From the NCBI GenBank assembly GCA_947629035.1, contig CANRCE010000003.1, positions 1-61,355 on the forward strand: a DNA stretch of 61,355 nt, in the 5' to 3' direction. Made by a program: the position numbers and the translations under genes. The notes under the pieces were generated by a model. The model was not told where the DNA came from and did no database searches. It worked only from the letters and a program-made list of their open reading frames with translations. Every line of letters begins with the position of its first letter. The stretch's first letter is position 1. Source of the DNA: an uncultured Bacilli bacterium (GTDB lineage Bacteria > Bacillota_I > Bacilli_A > RF39 > UBA660). Below, piece after piece: positions 690 through 37,375 of the stretch.

Positions 690-2168
690 ATGACTACTGA
701 TAACCAAATAAGAAAAATCTTAAACAAAATAGATAAAACACCTAAAAATAAAAAGATAGAATTAAATTCTAAAGAAATCTTTGGTTTAGGTTATAAGCCT
801 CTATTAGAAACGAAAGCGAACTTTATCGTTATGAAGGGTTCGCGTAATAGCAAGAAGTCAGTTAATAACTTTAGGCGAGCAGTTTTAAAATTAATAGGTA
901 GAGTAATGGGTACTAATGACCCTAATCTAAAATGTAATGTTTTAGTTATACGTAAATATTTAACAGACCACTCAGGTTCAACTAGAAAAGAAATTATTAA
1001 AGCAATAAAAGCATTAGGATTAACTGATTTATTTATAATACCTAAATCAGAATTAACTATAACATATAAACCAAAAGGAACTTGCTTTTTCTTCCGTGGT
1101 ATGGATGATGTTCAATCTATTACATCCATTACTTGTGAAGAAGGTTATATTACAGATGTAATATTCGAGGAAGCATTCCAAATAACTAATTATGATGATG
1201 TTGATAAAGTTTTATGGTCTATTCGTGCATTACCTGAACCATATTATCCACAATTTATGTTTATGTTAAATAGTTGGAACGAGGAACATTGGATAAATGA
1301 AAAATTCTTTAAACCTTGTCCTAAAAATATGGAATTTACTTTAGAGGATTATGACCAATGGAAATTAGCAAAAGACACTAATGGAAAAGAAGGAGATATT
1401 ACTAGAGGATTCAATAAATGGTGTGAATACGACCATGAAGAATTTGGTAGAGTATTAGTTGGTACTTGTAATTTCATGGATAATGAATTCGTTTCAGAAC
1501 TAGACTTAAAACGATTTGATAGATTAAGACATTCTAATCCAGATGCTTTTAAAGTTATAGGATTAGGTAATTGGGGTGTTACAGAAGGTAATGTATTTAC
1601 ACACTGGAAAGTTAAAGATTTCAATATTATGGAAATTATTAAACGTAGTGTGAATCCTACTACAGGCAAGCCGACAATTAAAATGTTTAATGGTTTAGAT
1701 TTTGGTTTTAGTACTTCTCCTACTTGTTTTGTAAACCTATTTGTAGATGAGAAAGAATCAGTTATATATATAAATAAAAGTTGGGAACAAGTTGGTTTAA
1801 CGAACCCACAAATAGCCGCTAAGCTTAGAGTATCAGGGTTTAGAGAAGCCATTATATGTTGTGATGCCGCTGAACCTAAATCTATATTAGAGTTAAGACA
1901 TCAAGGTGTATGGAATGCAAGAGCAGGAGATAAATTAGAAATAAGAGATAGAATTGCATTACTAAAATCTTATCATATAATTATTCATCCTTCCTGTACT
2001 AATGTTATAGAAGACTTTAAGAATTGTATCTATGACACAGACCCTAAAACAGGAAAACCAAGATTACCTGAAAGATGGAGTAAAGACCCTTCTGTTGACC
2101 CACACAGCATTGATGCTATTTCATATGCTTTAGGAAAACTACACAAAGGTGGTCTATCTTTCGATTAA
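690..2168 (+). CDS. terL: terminase large subunit
   Basis: 492 aa. N-terminal P-loop-like VMKGSRNSKKS. The acidic C-terminal half is typical of the RNaseH-like nuclease domain. Followed by a strong terminator. Confidence 0.85.
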   Translation: MTTDNQIRKILNKIDKTPKNKKIELNSKEIFGLGYKPLLETKANFIVMKGSRNSKKSVNNFRRAVLKLIGRVMGTNDPNLKCNVLVIRKYLTDHSGSTRKEIIKAIKALGLTDLFIIPKSELTITYKPKGTCFFFRGMDDVQSITSITCEEGYITDVIFEEAFQITNYDDVDKVLWSIRALPEPYYPQFMFMLNSWNEEHWINEKFFKPCPKNMEFTLEDYDQWKLAKDTNGKEGDITRGFNKWCEYDHEEFGRVLVGTCNFMDNEFVSELDLKRFDRLRHSNPDAFKVIGLGNWGVTEGNVFTHWKVKDFNIMEIIKRSVNPTTGKPTIKMFNGLDFGFSTSPTCFVNLFVDEKESVIYINKSWEQVGLTNPQIAAKLRVSGFREAIICCDAAEPKSILELRHQGVWNARAGDKLEIRDRIALLKSYHIIIHPSCTNVIEDFKNCIYDTDPKTGKPRLPERWSKDPSVDPHSIDAISYALGKLHKGGLSFD

Positions 2169-2185
2169 AAAAAAATTATATATCA

Positions 2186-2217
2186 AAAAGCCTTGTTTCA
2201 TAAGGCTTTTTATTTTT
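2186..2217 (+). terminator. rho-independent terminator after terL
   Basis: Stem AAAAGCCTT / AAGGCTTTT with a 7-nt loop, then a T-run. Confidence 0.8.
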
Positions 2218-2243
2218 TGCCAAGGAAAACTTAGTAAAAATCC

Positions 2244-2273
2244 TTGACATTTTCTTTCTATATATTATATAAT
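2244..2273 (+). promoter_or_regulatory. sigma-A-type early promoter (TTGACA, 18 nt, TATAAT)
   Basis: TTGACA at 2244-2249 and TATAAT at 2268-2273. Confidence 0.65.
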
Positions 2274-2377
2274 GAATATAAGATAGAAGTCTAGGAGGCG
2301 TTAGTAATGACCTGAGTATTAGTTTTAGCAATGAATTTAGAAATTTAAAAAAAAATTAAAAATTATTAAAAAACTTA

Positions 2378-2406
2378 TTGACAAATTATATAATATATTA
2401 TATAAT
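2378..2406 (+). promoter_or_regulatory. sigma-A-type early promoter (TTGACA, 17 nt, TATAAT)
   Basis: TTGACA at 2378-2383 and TATAAT at 2401-2406. Same cassette as at 30.6-32.9 kb. Confidence 0.7.
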
Positions 2407-2480
2407 ATTAATATAAATTAAATAAAAGGTCACTTTTAAATAATTTATAGCAATTTATAGAAAGAAGGAGGGTATAAGAA

Positions 2481-2834
2481 ATGAACTTATACGAAGATTT
2501 GAAAAACCTATTCGGGCCAGGTAAAGTGTTCGAACTAAAAGAAGGGGACAAAGGTAGTGATGATTTAAAAGATTATATGCCAATAATCTATAACATCAGA
2601 GAAAAATATCCTACTATTCCAGATGATAGATTATATGATATAATCATTGACTCCATTTTATTTTATAATAGTTACTCAAAGAAAACTACTAAAAGAAGTA
2701 ACTTATTAACATTATTTAAAATGGCAGTCACTCAGGGGGCTATAAATTATATAAGTGTAAAAAGAAATAAACTAAATGACAGTGCTATTAGTTATGAACA
2801 ATTATTAGAAGAAGGTATCCAAATAGAGGGATGA
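2481..2834 (+). CDS. small sigma-70 region-2-like protein (117 aa)
   Basis: GAAGGAGGG RBS. Its pattern (IIYNIREKY ... LFKMAVTQGAINYISVKR) parallels ORFs 4212 and 51532 and resembles sigma region 2. The match is weak. Confidence 0.4.
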   Translation: MNLYEDLKNLFGPGKVFELKEGDKGSDDLKDYMPIIYNIREKYPTIPDDRLYDIIIDSILFYNSYSKKTTKRSNLLTLFKMAVTQGAINYISVKRNKLNDSAISYEQLLEEGIQIEG

Positions 2835-2846
2835 GCGCCTAATACA

Positions 2847-2861
2847 TAGACGAGCTGACAT
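2847..2861 (+). repeat. 15-nt exact repeat TAGACGAGCTGACAT (copy 1 of 2)
   Basis: Identical 15-mer at 29269-29283. It has 7 G/C in an AT-rich genome. Confidence 0.9.
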
Positions 2862-2872
2862 CTTAGTTTAAC

Positions 2873-2907
2873 GAAGGTATTATTTATTAGTAATGCCTTC
2901 TATTTTT
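2873..2907 (+). terminator. rho-independent terminator
   Basis: GAAGGTATTA ... TAATGCCTTC stem with one G-T pair, then TATTTTT. Confidence 0.65.
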
Positions 2908-2957
2908 ATTATAAATAGATTTTTAAAAATTATAAGTAAATTATTAAAAAGTTGATT

Positions 2958-2996
2958 TTAAATTTTTAAAAACATATAATAATAATGAAGAGGGAA
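2958..2996 (+). promoter_or_regulatory. conserved promoter-like element TTAAATTTTT-NN-AAAACATATAATAATAATGAAG (copy 1)
   Basis: The 22-mer at 2969-2990 is identical to 52441-52462. TTGATT lies 17 nt upstream of its TATAAT. Confidence 0.5.
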
Positions 2997-3165
2997 ATAT
3001 TTAAAGTCAAAAAAAATCGACTAGTAGTTAGAAAAAGTAACCACTAGTCCAGAACCAAAAGGTCCTGTGGAACCTATTTGCAAGGAATAGATTCCGTAAT
3101 TATAATACTGATTTTCAAAACTTCAGTTTTTAATTACGAAATCTACGAAAAAACTTGAAGATGTT

Positions 3166-3190
3166 TGTATTAAAAATTGAAGGAAGGAGA
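3166..3190 (+). promoter_or_regulatory. TGTATTA box fused to the RBS
   Basis: TGTATTAAAAATTGAAGGAAGGAG. One of at least 14 copies. Confidence 0.4.
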
Positions 3191-3197
3191 AAACAGT

Positions 3198-4166
3198 ATG
3201 AACAGAACAGTTAATTATTTATCTAAAACTTATTTAAACAATAAAGATATAAATAAAGTAATTGATAAAATTGCTTCACACTTATTTAGATACTGCACTA
3301 AAAAAGTATCTTTAGAATATAAATATTCCGTGGCTATTGAGTGGATTAACGAGCTTAATAGCCATCTTTTATGCCCTTTATTAGATACACAGGAATCAAT
3401 TTATTACAATCCTGACTTCATTTATTATAGAGGATTTACAACAACACAAGAAAAAGAATTAGAAGCAGTTGCTAATGAAATAAATAGAAGATATCAAAAT
3501 TATATTAATAATAATTTTAGATTTTCTAAATATCAAGAAATTTTTGAAACTTGGTCTAATTATAATCATCCTAGTGAAGAAAGAAAAGGTAATTGGACTA
3601 TAAAACAAATTAGTGAAGCAAAAGATATTCAAAAACAATTAAAAGAAACATATCCTGAATTATTTAATAGATTAAGAAAGACTTGTCCGAGATTTAATTG
3701 TGGATTAAGTTTAATAATGGAAGTATGTTCTAAATTATTTGTTTTAGAAAGAATTAGTAAAGACCAATATCAATTAAATTTAAAGAATGAAGAAATAATT
3801 CAAGTTATGCGAGAATACTGTGATAAAACTAATAGTCCATATTATGCAAATGAATATGAAAAAGCAAGTTATATTAGAAGTATTCTAAATGACTTAGTAT
3901 ATTTCTGTTTTAGTGATGATTTTAAAATAACTGAAGATGGATATTTAATGATGAAATTTCACAGCAGATTAATATTATCTTTAACAAGTAATCGCTGTAA
4001 ATTCCTGTTTTCAAAGTCAATCAATAATCATTTCATTATATTCAATGATTTATTAAATTCATTACATAAATTTAATAATCATTCTAAATATAATTACACT
4101 AAAATTAATAATAACTTATTAATAAGATGCAAAAATTGCATGGAAACTAAAAGAAATACTTCATAA
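3198..4166 (+). CDS. hypothetical protein (322 aa)
   Basis: ATG at 3198 is preferred over the tracked TTG at 3177 because GAAGGAAGGAG lies 8 nt upstream. No motif recognised. Carries the 25-nt repeat at 3999-4023. Confidence 0.6.
   Translation: MNRTVNYLSKTYLNNKDINKVIDKIASHLFRYCTKKVSLEYKYSVAIEWINELNSHLLCPLLDTQESIYYNPDFIYYRGFTTTQEKELEAVANEINRRYQNYINNNFRFSKYQEIFETWSNYNHPSEERKGNWTIKQISEAKDIQKQLKETYPELFNRLRKTCPRFNCGLSLIMEVCSKLFVLERISKDQYQLNLKNEEIIQVMREYCDKTNSPYYANEYEKASYIRSILNDLVYFCFSDDFKITEDGYLMMKFHSRLILSLTSNRCKFLFSKSINNHFIIFNDLLNSLHKFNNHSKYNYTKINNNLLIRCKNCMETKRNTS
3999..4023 (+). repeat. 25-nt exact repeat AAATTCCTGTTTTCAAAGTCAATCA (copy inside a CDS)
   Basis: Identical to 35258-35282. Reverse complement of the tandem 20-mers at 35106-35146. 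Confidence 0.9.
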
Positions 4167-33189: not shown

Positions 33190-33924
33190 ATGGAAGAATT
33201 AATTAATTATAAAATAGAAAATTTAGCAATAACAAAATTGGAGACATATACAAAAGTCCATAATAGATTTGAATATTATAATATAGAAGAAGAAAAGGTA
33301 TTTAAAATAGAAGACGATTTATCCATTAAAAAGAAATTAGAAATAATAGATGCCATGACGGAAGGATTAGGTTCATATATATTAGAATTAATATTAAAAT
33401 ATGAAACCGCTAAAAATGAAAAAGCAATTAAAATGACACAATATGGAGGTTTTAATAAAAATTCTTTAAACAAATGGATAAAAGAAAATGACCCTAGAAA
33501 AATATGCTATATTAGTTATGACTCTTCTTTTCCAAGATATAAATTCGAAGGTAATTTATATAAATTAGAAAGTATAACTCCAAGGACGGATTATAGTTAT
33601 AAAAGATTATATGACGGTAAAGATATAATCCACCAATTATTTCACGATTTATTAATAAATAGATATAAAGACGAAATTGAATATTATAGGAATAATGACC
33701 CAATCCAAATAAAAATGAATAAGGTAAGAGATTTAGCAAATAAATATAATATATATCCAGAAAATAATGAAAAATTATCAAACCTAATTTTCAATAATAA
33801 AAGGGAAGGCATAAGCGCGGAAGAAATAAATGCTTATCTAAATATATTAAATGATTTAGAAAAACAAATAGAATATACATATCATAAATTAGAAATAGCA
33901 GGAAATTATTATAAAGAAAAATAA
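33190..33924 (+). CDS. hypothetical early protein (244 aa)
   Basis: AAGGAGG RBS. Translationally coupled to the upstream gene. Confidence 0.55.
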   Translation: MEELINYKIENLAITKLETYTKVHNRFEYYNIEEEKVFKIEDDLSIKKKLEIIDAMTEGLGSYILELILKYETAKNEKAIKMTQYGGFNKNSLNKWIKENDPRKICYISYDSSFPRYKFEGNLYKLESITPRTDYSYKRLYDGKDIIHQLFHDLLINRYKDEIEYYRNNDPIQIKMNKVRDLANKYNIYPENNEKLSNLIFNNKREGISAEEINAYLNILNDLEKQIEYTYHKLEIAGNYYKEK

Positions 33925-34274
33925 AAATAAATAAAAAAGAAAATTAAAAATAATAAATATATATTATAATAAAATTAAAATTAAATAAAAATAAAAATAG
34001 AAATTAAGAAAAATGAGGGTATAAAAAATAAGGTATAAGTGCCTTGAAAAAGAGAAATAATAAGTAAAAGAATTTCAAACCAGGTCGACGGAGGTCCGGG
34101 GAGATAGATAAAAATATAGGTAAAGAAAAATAAAGAAAAATGTTATTAGTAGAAATATTAATAGCATTTTTATTATTGTTAAATAAATATAAAGTATAAG
34201 CAAAATAGTATTAGTCCTATATAATGTAATAAAGCAAATTAAGCAGTAATAAGCATTAAGCATAATATATAAAT

Positions 34275-34383
34275 GACATTATATAAAGGTGACTGAAAAA
34301 GATTATATATGAATTGACATTATTTTTTATATAAAGATTTCTTATATATAAAGGCGACATTATTTTTTATATATAAAGGTGAT
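34275..34383. repeat. three direct repeats at about 40-bp period (GACATTATTTTTTATATATAAAGGYGA)
   Basis: GACATTAT starts at 34275, 34316 and 34356. Confidence 0.75.
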
Positions 34384-34423
34384 ATAGAGTAAAGTAGCAA
34401 GAAAGAAATATTTAAAATAATTT

Positions 34424-34488
34424 CTCCATACCAATCCGTCTACCTCCAATACATCCTCAATAAATCTCCAACCAATCTCCAGCCAAAT
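34424..34488 (+). other. C-rich, G-poor tract with repeated (T/C)CTCCA
   Basis: TCTCCA or CCTCCA at 34423, 34443, 34465 and 34476. I counted only about 2-3 G in 65 nt. Confidence 0.7.
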
Positions 34489-34805
34489 AGTGTCTTTTAT
34501 GTTAAGTTATCATTTATATTAATAGACAATAAAGGCGGAAGGAAATAAATATAATAATGGTAATATTATTAATGTATATAATTAATTAGCATATAAAGCT
34601 AACTATATTAACTATATGTATATGTATATATTAATAAATAAATAATAATTATTATTTTAGCTACCATCTAATATACCACCTCCTCCCTTAAAGCCTTGCT
34701 AATAGCCATTACTCGCCGCTTAGTATGGTGCAAAAGGTACGGTTATAGCGCGAACTGGCGTGTCGTTGGGGGACCATTAATTTAACTTTTTGCCATAAAA
34801 TCCAA

Positions 34806-35208
34806 AAATGCGAACAAGCCGGAGAAAACTCCGATTCGGTGTTAACGCGCCCCAATGTTCACTCCAAATCAAAAATACCGGGGGTGGAATTCTCTGGTTA
34901 AAGCGTCGATATAAGTCAAAACAGGCTTGCTTATTGCAAACCGTAAATGCGAAACATCGGAGAAATCCTTGCGAAAGTGTTACTGCGCCCCAGTGTTCGA
35001 TTAAAAAGTAACGGGTCTAAAACTGGGGCAGATGTCAATCCATAATATTTTAGATAATGATTTTTAGTAAAATCGACTAAAAATATCGTGAATTTTAGAG
35101 AAAAATTACTTTGAAAACAGGAATTCTTACTTTGAAAACAGGAATTGGCGGTGAAAAAGATACAAGGAAAACTGGAGAAGAGTGTTATCTCGCCCCAGTG
35201 TTCACTCC
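34806..35208 (+). repeat. three imperfect direct repeats (about 40-60 nt) with the GC-rich core CGCCCCA(A/G)TGTTC
   Basis: Copy A at 34806-34865, copy B at 34945-35002, copy C at 35172-35208. Cores at 34848, 34986 and 35191. Local GC is far above the window background. Confidence 0.8.
35106..35146 (+). repeat. tandem 20-mer TTACTTTGAAAACAGGAATT x2 (21-nt period)
   Basis: Copies at 35106-35125 and 35127-35146. An inverted copy lies at 35259-35276. Confidence 0.9.
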
Positions 35209-35257
35209 GCTGACGAAATCTAATAATTATGGTTATTTTATCTAATATTATGAACTA

Positions 35258-35282
35258 AAATTCCTGTTTTCAAAGTCAATCA
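35258..35282 (+). repeat. 25-nt exact repeat AAATTCCTGTTTTCAAAGTCAATCA (intergenic copy)
   Basis: Identical to 3999-4023. Forms an inverted repeat with 35106-35146. Confidence 0.9.
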
Positions 35283-35429
35283 TATATAATATATAAATAT
35301 ATTAATAACTAATATTAACATATTATTTATTTATATTTATATCTTAAATACTAATAATAAATATTAGTATAAGAAGTTTTGTTGCAAAACTAACGGTATG
35401 AATGTTTTGTTTATATTATGTAAATTAAA

Positions 35430-35447
35430 AAGGTATTATTTATTAGT
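35430..35447 (+). repeat. 18-nt exact repeat AAGGTATTATTTATTAGT
   Basis: Identical to 2874-2891, which is the 5-prime arm of the 2873 terminator. Confidence 0.85.
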
Positions 35448-35524
35448 GTATTTAAAAATTTCGTCTGCCCCACCACCCCTGTCGCCTGTATTATATAGTG
35501 AGGAAGGAAATAGAGGTGATTTTG

Positions 35525-35995: not shown

Positions 35996-36409
35996 ATGAG
36001 AGTAAATGTAGGAGATATTGTTTTAGCAGTATATAGAGATTTTAATCAAGAATTAAAAAAGGCATACTTTGTTGTATGCTATCACGAGTGTTATGATATA
36101 CCTACTAGCACTAATTTTACAGCAATTAAGATATCATCAGAAGAAAGAGGTTATGGAATTTTATTACAACCTGAATATTTACCTTTTTTGAGTCATAATT
36201 CTTATCTTAATTGTAATATTCAATTTACTTTTAGAGAAAGTGAAGTTTTAAAGGTAATGGGACATTTAACTCCTTATTATCTAAATAAACTTTTACAACA
36301 AACAAAGAATTATAATAATAAAATGAGTAAACAAATAACAGAAATGATAGGCGAACATAATTTATTCAAAGATTTTAGTAAACCACAAAGAGTTGAGGAA
36401 GAGAATTAG
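35996..36409 (+). CDS. hypothetical protein (137 aa)
   Basis: AGGAGG RBS. The N-terminal VGDIVLAVY is SH3- or MazF-like, but this is too weak to call. Confidence 0.5.
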   Translation: MRVNVGDIVLAVYRDFNQELKKAYFVVCYHECYDIPTSTNFTAIKISSEERGYGILLQPEYLPFLSHNSYLNCNIQFTFRESEVLKVMGHLTPYYLNKLLQQTKNYNNKMSKQITEMIGEHNLFKDFSKPQRVEEEN

Positions 36410-36425: not shown

Positions 36426-36851
36426 ATGAGTAATTATAATTTAGCAAGAAAGTTTGTTAAAGAGAAAGCAAAGTATTTAGCAAGAATACAAGTAAGAGAC
36501 CAAGGTGTACTAAGAAGAAAGTTAGTTAATACATTAATTGATTATACAATTGAAAGATATGATTTAACAGCAATTGAAGGTTTGAAATTAACAAAAGTAG
36601 TTAACTTGATAGTTTTATCGAATTTAGGAGATTTTAAAACAAGTAATCCTGATTATAAAAATTTACCAAAGGATTGGGCCTATGTTATTAAACAAAGACC
36701 TAGATTATATAGTTTGAAACAATTAACACCTGTTGAAATTACTTATCATAGAAATTATTGTAGTATTGAAGATGGTTGTAGATTTGGACCAAGAGAAACT
36801 TGTCCTGTTGCTAAAGGTTGGCTATCTCCTGTAGAAAGGAAAAAGAAATGA
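36426..36851 (+). CDS. hypothetical protein (141 aa)
   Basis: ATG at 36426 follows AAAGGAAG and is preferred over the tracked TTG at 36393. Confidence 0.5.
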   Translation: MSNYNLARKFVKEKAKYLARIQVRDQGVLRRKLVNTLIDYTIERYDLTAIEGLKLTKVVNLIVLSNLGDFKTSNPDYKNLPKDWAYVIKQRPRLYSLKQLTPVEITYHRNYCSIEDGCRFGPRETCPVAKGWLSPVERKKK

Positions 36852-37375
36852 ATAAGGAAGCTTTACTTAAAAAGTTGTTAAAACTTAGTGAACAAGGTAT
36901 AGGTGGTGAAAAAGAAAACGCTGAAGCCTTATTAAATAAGTTGTTAAAGAAATATGAAATAAATATAGAAGATATTTCAGAAGAAGAAAAGCCAAAACAA
37001 AGAGATATTTGGTATGAAAATGATTATGAATTAAGATTGTTAAATCAATTATACTATGCTTGGTTTCCAAAAAGAGATAGTTGGAATTATACAAATAAAA
37101 GATATAAGAAAGCAAGACACACAATGATATTAGAACTAACAGATGCTGAACTTATTCAGTTTGAATATGCTTATGAAATATTAAAAGAGAATTGGTATAA
37201 GGAAGTTGATTTATTTTATCACGCCTTTATACAGAAGAATAATATATTTCCTAAGGAGGAAGATGCATTAGATTTACCTAGTGACAATAAAAAAGTTGAT
37301 ATGAAAGATTTAATTAAAATGGAGTCATACGCTAGAGGTATTGATACTGTAGCTATTAGACAAGCAATAGAATAA
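36848..37375 (+). CDS. hypothetical protein; the N-terminus resembles DUF2786
   Basis: LLKLSEQGIGGEKENAEALLNKLLKKYEI resembles the DUF2786 helical motif. ATGA overlap with the upstream gene. Confidence 0.45.
   Translation: MNKEALLKKLLKLSEQGIGGEKENAEALLNKLLKKYEINIEDISEEEKPKQRDIWYENDYELRLLNQLYYAWFPKRDSWNYTNKRYKKARHTMILELTDAELIQFEYAYEILKENWYKEVDLFYHAFIQKNNIFPKEEDALDLPSDNKKVDMKDLIKMESYARGIDTVAIRQAIE

Follow-up and report, generated by a model that had tools for sequence, protein, structure and literature searches.

A GC-rich, non-coding island with repeated C-rich cores, retained in place among gut phages of uncultured Bacillota

Contig CANRCE010000003.1 of the uncultured Bacilli assembly GCA_947629035.1, analysed here over its full 61,355 bp (the window), is phage DNA, and carries between two of its genes a long gap in which a GC-rich island holds direct repeats arranged in triplicated units. 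Judged from its counterparts in related phages, the island is a selected, non-coding and directional element, its GC being raised for about 400 nt and its sequence blocks following a fixed order. The reading favoured for it, at a probability of roughly 0.35, is that of a rightward-transcribed non-coding RNA, which would act via linear motifs as a platform or a sponge.

Three GC-rich direct repeats had been described at this locus in a first-pass annotation, and both a repeat search and a pattern search with shuffled controls bear them out. The 22-mer GTGTTAnnnCGCCCCARTGTTC has three copies in the contig, at 34839, 34977 and 35182, each on the + strand, and the 27-nt cores that start at these positions show 74-89% mutual identity in the repeat search. 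With up to two mismatches allowed, the 13-mer CGCCCCARTGTTC occurs in the whole contig only at these three sites, again all on the + strand, against a chance expectation of 0.26, and three matches were reached in 0 of 100 shuffles. The repeat is also longer than had been seen at first, since the three units align pairwise with local scores of 47-61 vs 18-19 ± 3 for shuffles. The units measure 140-200 nt and each of them ends in a core; units 1 and 2 have GGTTAWAGCG, AAATGCGAA and CGGAGAAA in common, and the earlier alignment of copies A and B over about 60 nt (AAATGCGAA..CGGAGAAA..GTGTTA..core), with copy C retaining the 3' part, holds. By these alignments, an ancestral unit of about 150 nt gave rise to three old tandem copies, now diverged, and the three cores are their best-kept 3' ends.

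The irregular spacing, for which a CRISPR array had been set aside, was measured as 138 and 205 nt, and both a CRISPR array and a solitary mimic of a CRISPR repeat were rejected on these spacings and on the 22-mer, which has no further match (up to two mismatches) in the other 79 contigs of the host metagenome-assembled genome (MAG). Among 401 MAGs of the host family the 22-mer gave just single matches with two mismatches, and both of those inspected lie in coding-looking sequence. The earlier suggestion of mimic or decoy elements thus found no look-alike in the host MAG, in the 401 family MAGs or among CRISPR and tRNA models.

Relatives of the phage were reached through its 175-aa protein (36818-37375) and its 137-aa protein, in ENA and in Logan gut assemblies. 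The sequence of the island comes from three lineages, namely the window, L069 and L082; a fourth, L108, gives the right border of the gap only, its contig breaking there, and the contigs of several relatives end at the gap. An identical island is found in four contigs of the same phage. In L069, where the 175-aa protein is 69% identical, a syntenic gap of 1.8 kb (1563-3358) has its GC-rich island at 2476-3125, and in L082, where the 175-aa and 137-aa proteins are about 51% and 68% identical, respectively, the gap (1-1553) has its island at 646-1335. The genes to the left of the gap vary among the lineages and the architecture of the gap is retained; more distant relatives are without the gap. 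Conservation in relatives, on which the first-pass annotation had staked its proposal, is therefore borne out, in that the region is retained both in its place and in its order of blocks. The island is nonetheless rare, its sequence being found in three lineages and its border alone in a fourth.

Among the blocks that the three islands have in common, the first in order is GGTTATAGCG..TGG..GGGG(A/T)CC, followed by ..TTTTTCTGC or TTTTTGCC and then by the modules. After these come GGGTCTAAA, an AT-rich TTTTAG block and two direct copies of (G)ACTTTGAA.., and last in order are a final module, an inverted CAAAGTC(A)AT and a conserved AT-rich flank. The modules number 3-4 per island, and the ten modules of the three lineages, all oriented as the genes, give a nearly gap-free alignment with the consensus aCGG.g.tt.C.gG......GTGT.agt.cG.cCca. 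Within a lineage the cores are 77-88% identical in the window and 81% in L082 (module 3 vs module 4), and the three cores of L069 are 35-50% identical; between the window and L082 the identity is 58-65%, and no copy of CGCCCCARTGTTC (up to two mismatches) was found in L069. By this comparison, the exact sequence of the core is lineage-specific. At the place of the C-rich core found elsewhere, the third module of L069 has a perfect palindrome, TCACCGGTGA (3037-3046), and a G-quadruplex-like run, GGGGGTGGGGTGGAGGGG, lies at 2571-2594 of the same contig.

As far as these three lineages tell, two features of the pairing type are conserved, namely the inverted repeat of unit 3 and, in both relatives, a terminator-like hairpin after unit 2. 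In L082 the inverted repeat is perfect over 18 bp, as in the window (Table 1), and its arms lie 111 nt apart; over the distal eight positions it has CTAAACTT vs CAGGAATT in the window, and since pairing stays perfect while the distal half differs, the two arms have changed in concert. L069 retains 10-12 bp of it, the arms lying 116-137 nt apart, and the 5' arm is tandemly duplicated in all three lineages. An exact 25-nt copy of the 3' arm, AAATTCCTGTTTTCAAAGTCAAT.. (35258-35282), lies 31 kb away at 3999-4023, within the 3' part of the open reading frame (ORF) 3177-4166, with no partner arm nearby. The terminator-like hairpin is the sole + strand site of this kind in the gap of each relative, and it falls at the homologous spot past module B with unrelated stems (GATGCC/GGCATT at 2911-2926 in L069; GTATCC/GGATAC at 1111-1126 in L082). 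In the window no terminator was called at the homologous place.

Table 1. Features of the gap and its surroundings in the window
Feature	Position	Strand	Remarks
Gene-free gap, 1.57 kb	33925..35497	+	preceded by the last early gene (33190-33924), followed by a small gene
GC-rich non-coding island, 620 nt	34660..35280	+	from the composition profile and the homologous islands in L069 and L082
Repeat unit 1	34720..34875	+	GGTTATAGCG block, AAATGCGAA, CGGAGAAA, core A
GGTTATAGCG	34741..34750	+	longest block invariant across the three lineages; degenerate second copy at 34896-34905
67-aa ORF	34808..35011	+	no family match, no homologous ORF in L069 or L082
Core A	34839..34865	+	GTGTTAACGCGCCCCAATGTTCACTCC
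Repeat unit 2	34876..35012	+	GGTTAAAGCG, AAATGCGAA, CGGAGAAA, core B
Core B	34977..35003	+	GTGTTACTGCGCCCCAGTGTTCGATTA
ACTGGGGCAG	35021..35030	+	complement of cores B and C; hairpin partner proposed in the first-pass annotation
Repeat unit 3	35070..35218	+	two 20-nt direct repeats, CTGGAGAA, core C
Tandem pair of TTACTTTGAAAACAGGAATT	35106..35146	+	counterparts at L082 1193-1231 and L069 2971-3006
Core C	35182..35208	+	GTGTTATCTCGCCCCAGTGTTCACTCC
Inverted copy AATTCCTGTTTTCAAAGT	35259..35276	+	makes, with 35129-35146, a perfect 18-bp inverted repeat around core C; arms 112 nt apart
137-aa MazF-fold protein gene	35996..36409	+	0.7 kb 3' of the island; conserved

The island has 39% GC overall and 41-47% in its first 400 nt (34650-35050), compared with 11-25% in its flanks (11-14% in the immediately bordering stretches) and 28% in the contig. 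The rise in GC that had been reported is thereby confirmed, at a factor of about 1.6, slightly under the doubling first stated. The gap contains no conserved ORF and has stops in every frame. A reading of the islands as coding under alternative genetic codes was rejected, with all three stop codons (TAA, TAG and TGA) present in nearly every frame of the three islands, and tblastx between the islands gives matches in all six frames. The 67-aa ORF that overlaps cores A and B is judged spurious from these comparisons. A further coding possibility is that the cores encode small peptides, starting from the GTG of GTGTTA (MLTRPNVHS..., MLLRPSVRL... and MLSRPSVHS...). The three cores do share a frame in which the variable NNN makes one codon, the differences between modules 3 and 4 of L082 fall mostly in third codon positions, and core B of the window and module 3 of L082 have ..RP(S/T)V..KS(N/D)GSK in common. 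This idea is nevertheless barely credible, as a Shine-Dalgarno sequence at a workable distance precedes copy C only, the second codon of L082 module 4 is TAA, the cores of L069 yield no peptide, the products would be 13-49 aa long with unrelated tails, and tblastx is equally good in six frames.

The main idea of the first-pass annotation was that the repeats represent structured RNAs, either as paralogous small RNAs or as one large RNA of a new family. The GC-rich island in an AT-rich phage would suit such RNAs, as would the co-varying long inverted repeat, and the + strand of the window folds somewhat better than its shuffles (minimum free energy z-score of -3.6 with 20 shuffles and -2.8 with 80). 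The tests of structure draw on three lineages at about 60% identity and thus have little power, and misalignment, which lowers the measures, could mask covariation. Within these bounds, RNAalifold found 0 consensus pairs in the ten modules, and the structure conservation index of five anchored blocks from the three islands was 0-0.19 on either strand, no better than column shuffles; the exception was the block of the long inverted repeat, which beats column shuffles on the - strand only. Over the whole island, the consensus energy was -21.2 kcal/mol vs -18.1 ± 4.1 for shuffles, with 23 compensatory pairs vs 25.6, and both measures match the shuffles on both strands. The z-scores (+/- strand) were -2.8/-2.1 for the window, -1.6/-1.2 for L069 and +0.9/-0.25 for L082, whose island thus folds no better than shuffles, and single modules gave -0.6 to -1.8 with mutually different folds.

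The pairing of the copy-B core with a downstream ACTGGGGC, as proposed earlier, does exist and is perfect in the window (GCCCCAGT with ACTGGGGC at 35021-35028, 8 Watson-Crick pairs), where it is marginally unusual (P about 0.035). It is not retained in L069 or L082, with 52% of the cells paired, a result equalled by 108 of 500 shuffles. Rfam was likewise empty at E ≤ 10. Structured RNAs are considered improbable here, and the claim of paralogous structured small RNAs is not supported. There is no sign that the repeats share an RNA fold, and the cores look like linear recognition motifs, so that the option of recognition sites, also raised in the first-pass annotation, survives.

The earlier remark that no known family could be recognised holds, since Rfam scans at gathering thresholds and at E ≤ 10 were empty in the window, L069 and L082. 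At gathering thresholds Rfam 15 assigns nothing to the gap, and its only matches in the window are the tmRNA and the tRNA at 50.4 kb; at E ≤ 10 the three gaps gave chance-level matches of miRNA or snoRNA type, far under the gathering scores. None of the families, among them ROOL, GOLLD, tRNA, CRISPR-DR and ribozymes, was assigned to the gap. The ROOL and GOLLD RNAs resemble the island in being GC-rich, non-coding and at least 600 nt long, and in occurring in Bacillota phages that also carry tRNA or tmRNA genes; they differ from it in that the island has no Rfam match at E ≤ 10 and no covariation-supported fold. BLAST against GenBank phages returned no match, and the core pattern had 0 matches in viral_contigs. 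Its 18 matches in metagenome_contigs and 32 in genome_contigs, mostly in GC-rich unrelated organisms and with no extended similarity, were ascribed to chance, as were those of two block I patterns in viral_contigs (0 for one, 22 for the other).

In the proposed mechanism, the island would be transcribed rightward, jointly with the early genes or from its AT-rich flank, where a promoter would lie, and the RNA would work without a conserved fold, through sequence motifs in line: a GG-rich segment (aCGG-N6-C-N-GG), GTGT and the C-rich core. As a platform or sponge, the RNA may offer multiple sites to a protein or to a G-rich RNA. Units 1 and 2 would end at the terminator, unit 3 would be displayed in the loop of the long stem made by the 18-bp inverted repeat, and the three cores would have been homogenised in the lineage of the window. 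What we infer in this proposal is the transcription, its strand, the action at the RNA level and the identity of the partner.

Several observations speak for such an RNA. The GC content is raised throughout the first 400 nt, beyond the conserved motifs, in surroundings of 11-28% GC, and GC-rich intergenic islands in AT-rich genomes are a classic signature for finding non-coding RNAs (PMC6429828). Each lineage has at least three C-rich motifs, and the C-rich small RNAs of low-GC bacteria carry several such motifs (PMC4132741). The modules are all oriented gene-wise, the terminator-like sites of the relatives are homologous in position with different stems, the inverted repeat conserves its length and spacing while its arms change, and no ORF is conserved. 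Other results weigh against it. In the window no convincing promoter was found before the island and no terminator was called at the homologous place, and the folding z-scores of the + strand are weak (-2.8, -1.6 and +0.9). No antisense target of at least 9 nt was found for the cores in the MAG or the phage, and 8-mer complements were at control level (96 vs 106 for reversed-word controls), shorter pairing of the Shine-Dalgarno type being outside the reach of this test; the complementarity of the cores to G-rich blocks is also at chance level, except for ACTGGGGC in the window. Moreover, L069 is without any repeated core (35-50% identity), which implies that the function of the island needs no array of identical sites. 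Finally, AT-rich sequence makes up many of the blocks with the strongest conservation, and a 25-nt block has a further copy at a distance of 31 kb; sites at the level of DNA would fit these two facts equally well.

The nearest known RNAs for this reading are those with repeated motifs, such as LhrC1-5, RsaE/RoxS and FsrA with their UCCC or C-rich motifs, and the protein sponges of the CsrB/RsmZ type with repeated GGA motifs (PMC4132741). The island is similar to the former in its several C-rich copies (CGCCCCA three times in the window, GTCCCAC/GCCCCAC in L082 and ACCCCG/CUCCCG/CACCCG in L069), and a GG-rich motif precedes each core. Further likenesses are the paralogous units within one intergenic region of an AT-rich genome and a function that would be carried by linear motifs. 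In contrast to these small RNAs, the units are without promoters and terminators of their own, and the islands of L069 and L082 have a single terminator-like site each; the units are joined and 140-200 nt long, compared to separate small RNAs of about 100 nt; and the island is phage-encoded, with no complementary target found.

Nearly as likely, and itself still doubtful, is a cis-acting region at the level of DNA, in which a protein of the phage or of the host would bind, on double-stranded DNA, to the cores, to the GG-rich motifs and to the 18-mers, direct as well as inverted. Such a region could be an origin of replication, a control region where early genes give way to middle ones, or an analogue of the injection-stop region of phage T5. 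The retention of primary sequence rather than of a fold fits such a region, as do the very AT-rich stretches that border the island and the 18-mer with its two direct copies and one inverted copy, a fourth lying at 4000-4017. Homogenisation has made the cores of one genome alike (window 77-88%, L082 81%), and orthologous cores differ, a pattern expected of sites that co-evolve with one binding protein. The position of the gap after a block of small genes, with promoter cassettes seen in L069, also agrees with it, and the left-hand genes that vary by lineage next to a gap layout that stays agree with the description of the T5 region (10.1101/866236).

In T5, a 1.66-kb non-coding region with direct and inverted repeats lies right after the pre-early genes and is conserved, unlike its neighbours (10.1101/866236). 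It would be the closest analogue in layout for a DNA-level role, having in common with the present gaps a length of 1.6-1.7 kb, the repeats, a position directly past small early genes and an order of repeats conserved among relatives. The likeness stops at the DnaA boxes that mark the T5 region, as no DnaA box (TTATCCACA, up to one mismatch) was found in the gaps of the three lineages. There is also no evidence here of terminal repeats or of two-step entry, the phage is of the myovirus type and infects Bacillota, the GC-rich island has no counterpart in T5, and the two regions share no sequence. The 83-kb contig of L069 ends (1-340) inside three tandem early-promoter cassettes (..ACTATTGACAAATATATTATAATATATTATAAT..), and because it lies in repeated cassettes this end is taken as an assembly break, with no evidence for a physical genome end. 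An origin of the iteron type finds the AT-rich flanks in place, yet the spacing of the cores (138 and 205 bp) is quite unlike that typical of iterons and no initiator gene is adjacent. The lack of DnaA boxes and of a proven terminus counts against sites in DNA, as do the high GC between the motifs, which is more than binding sites alone would need, the lack of repeated cores in L069 and the fact that no candidate binding protein was identified.

A functionless, decaying relic, such as a dead gene or a degraded tRNA array, might also leave an island of this kind. L083, one of the more distant relatives without the gap, has an array of tRNA and tmRNA genes directly past a 181-aa homologue, the window retains a tmRNA and one tRNA elsewhere, and the motif GTTCGA/GTTCAA of the core recalls a T-loop. 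The prospect is a slim one, for the island holds its place in three lineages with just 65-70% identity in the flanking proteins and with genomes that are otherwise tightly packed, and its GC is upheld against AT mutational drift. ARAGORN found no tRNA in the gaps of the window, L064, L069 and L082, the Rfam tRNA model RF00005 was empty even at E ≤ 10, and BLAST detected no similarity to the island in the tRNA gaps of L083. The array of L083 (8620-16511) comprises 12 tRNA genes and a tmRNA (tag AKIKNFVAKVKSAFVAAPAVA), which lie in GC-rich gaps directly past the homologue of the 175-aa protein, with some inter-tRNA spacers of 350-690 nt.

The conserved 137-aa protein encoded 3' of the island is predicted by AlphaFold2 (pLDDT 90) to have a MazF fold with a long C-terminal helix. 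The top 50 Foldseek matches in the PDB are all endoribonucleases of the MazF type, with no ToxN-type chain among them (best MazF-mt3, E 3e-6, TM 0.80), and the protein also matches PHROG 1936, 'MazF-like growth inhibitor' (E 0.0017). A search with the MazF-fold protein through 401 genomes of the family and 400 of the class turned up no additional copy of this phage group. No evident MazE partner was recognised for the protein.

This neighbour raises the possibility that the RNA of the island is an antidote or decoy array for the MazF-fold endoribonuclease, which would place it, in an oversized and degenerate form, among the relatives of type III toxin-antitoxin systems, carried here by a phage of lytic type. 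The cores of each lineage would then co-evolve with the sequence preference of its own RNase, which would explain why they are homogenised within a genome and different between lineages, and the terminator after unit 2 would set the ratio of RNA to RNase. The antitoxins of those systems (ToxI, CptI and TenpI) are similar in having repeated non-coding units 5' of a gene for an RNase of MazF/Kid-like fold, a terminator-like hairpin between the two (here in the relatives only) and little stable structure when free. Type III repeats are 34-45 nt long, near-identical and strictly tandem, and lie directly before the toxin gene. By comparison, the present units are diverged over 140-200 nt, with only the 22-27-nt cores alike, and the distance from island to gene, with 1-9 ORFs along it, is 0.7 kb in the window and about 2.6 kb in L082 (end at 1335, gene at 3950). 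The jumbo-phage relatives, in turn, have the MazF-fold gene without the island, and altogether an antidote array appears very unlikely.

In those jumbo phages (L109-L111 and L059), homologues of the MazF-fold protein and of the 244-aa protein (33190-33924) flank a gene for RNA ligase 1 of the T4 type, and genes resembling polynucleotide kinase/phosphatase lie alongside the MazF-fold homologue, an arrangement that suggests a module for RNA cleavage and repair. The 244-aa protein, for which no Pfam or PHROG family was found, has two distant relatives, 40-42% identical (L059 10001-10717 and L110 8646-9362), in phage contigs of 114-189 kb, 3' of the gene for RNA ligase 1. The search with this protein led just to jumbo phages without the gap, and scans of viral_contigs with single flanking proteins were unsuccessful; the informative relatives came by way of the 175-aa and 137-aa proteins.

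A few further candidates were considered for the repeats and set aside. Similarity to an attP site or a tRNA 3' end came down to a single shared 8-mer. In copy C, the spacing TTCACT-N7-CGAAA resembles a MuA site by eye; it is not in copies A or B and was taken as coincidence. Promoters of a phage sigma factor were likewise rejected, as the window has no homologue of the sigma-like protein of L077/L079 and the motif is confined to this gap.

The contig belongs to a MAG of 1.25 Mb with 25-28% GC, and its genes, which are nearly always on the + strand, include those for a terminase, SNF2 and DnaB helicases, primase, PolA, RecA and ligase, as well as for the major capsid protein, tail sheath and tape measure; the tRNA that accompanies the tmRNA at about 50.4 kb is a tRNA-Trp. 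The left half of the gap has lineage-specific tandem repeats of its own, three of about 40 bp in the window (34275-34383) and three of 22 bp, GATATTATAATACGGTAGTTTT, in L069 (1948-2014). Close to the left border of the gap, all three lineages have a small conserved block, rich in G, that ends in GGGGAGAT(A/G)(G/C)A.AAAA (window 34075-34103, L069 1777-1800, L082 113-140). At the other end, four lineages have a C-rich tract (e.g. GGTGCCTCCCCTG in L069; window 35466-35497, L069 3300-3358, L082 1500-1553, L108 170-220), conserved 15-25 nt 5' of a ribosome-binding site of the GAGGAGG type, which belongs to the first gene past the gap. By pairing with the Shine-Dalgarno sequence, this tract could act as a gate on translation.

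If functional, the island would be an unclassified non-coding element of about 0.6 kb in a clade of gut phages whose hosts are Bacillota with reduced genomes, a group without cultured members. The hunt for GC-rich islands in AT-rich genomes thereby meets a limit, in that it can yield elements without a demonstrable conserved fold. The island lies at the junction between the host-takeover genes and the remaining genome, and an RNA sponge or a DNA control site at this position would act at the early step that decides an infection.

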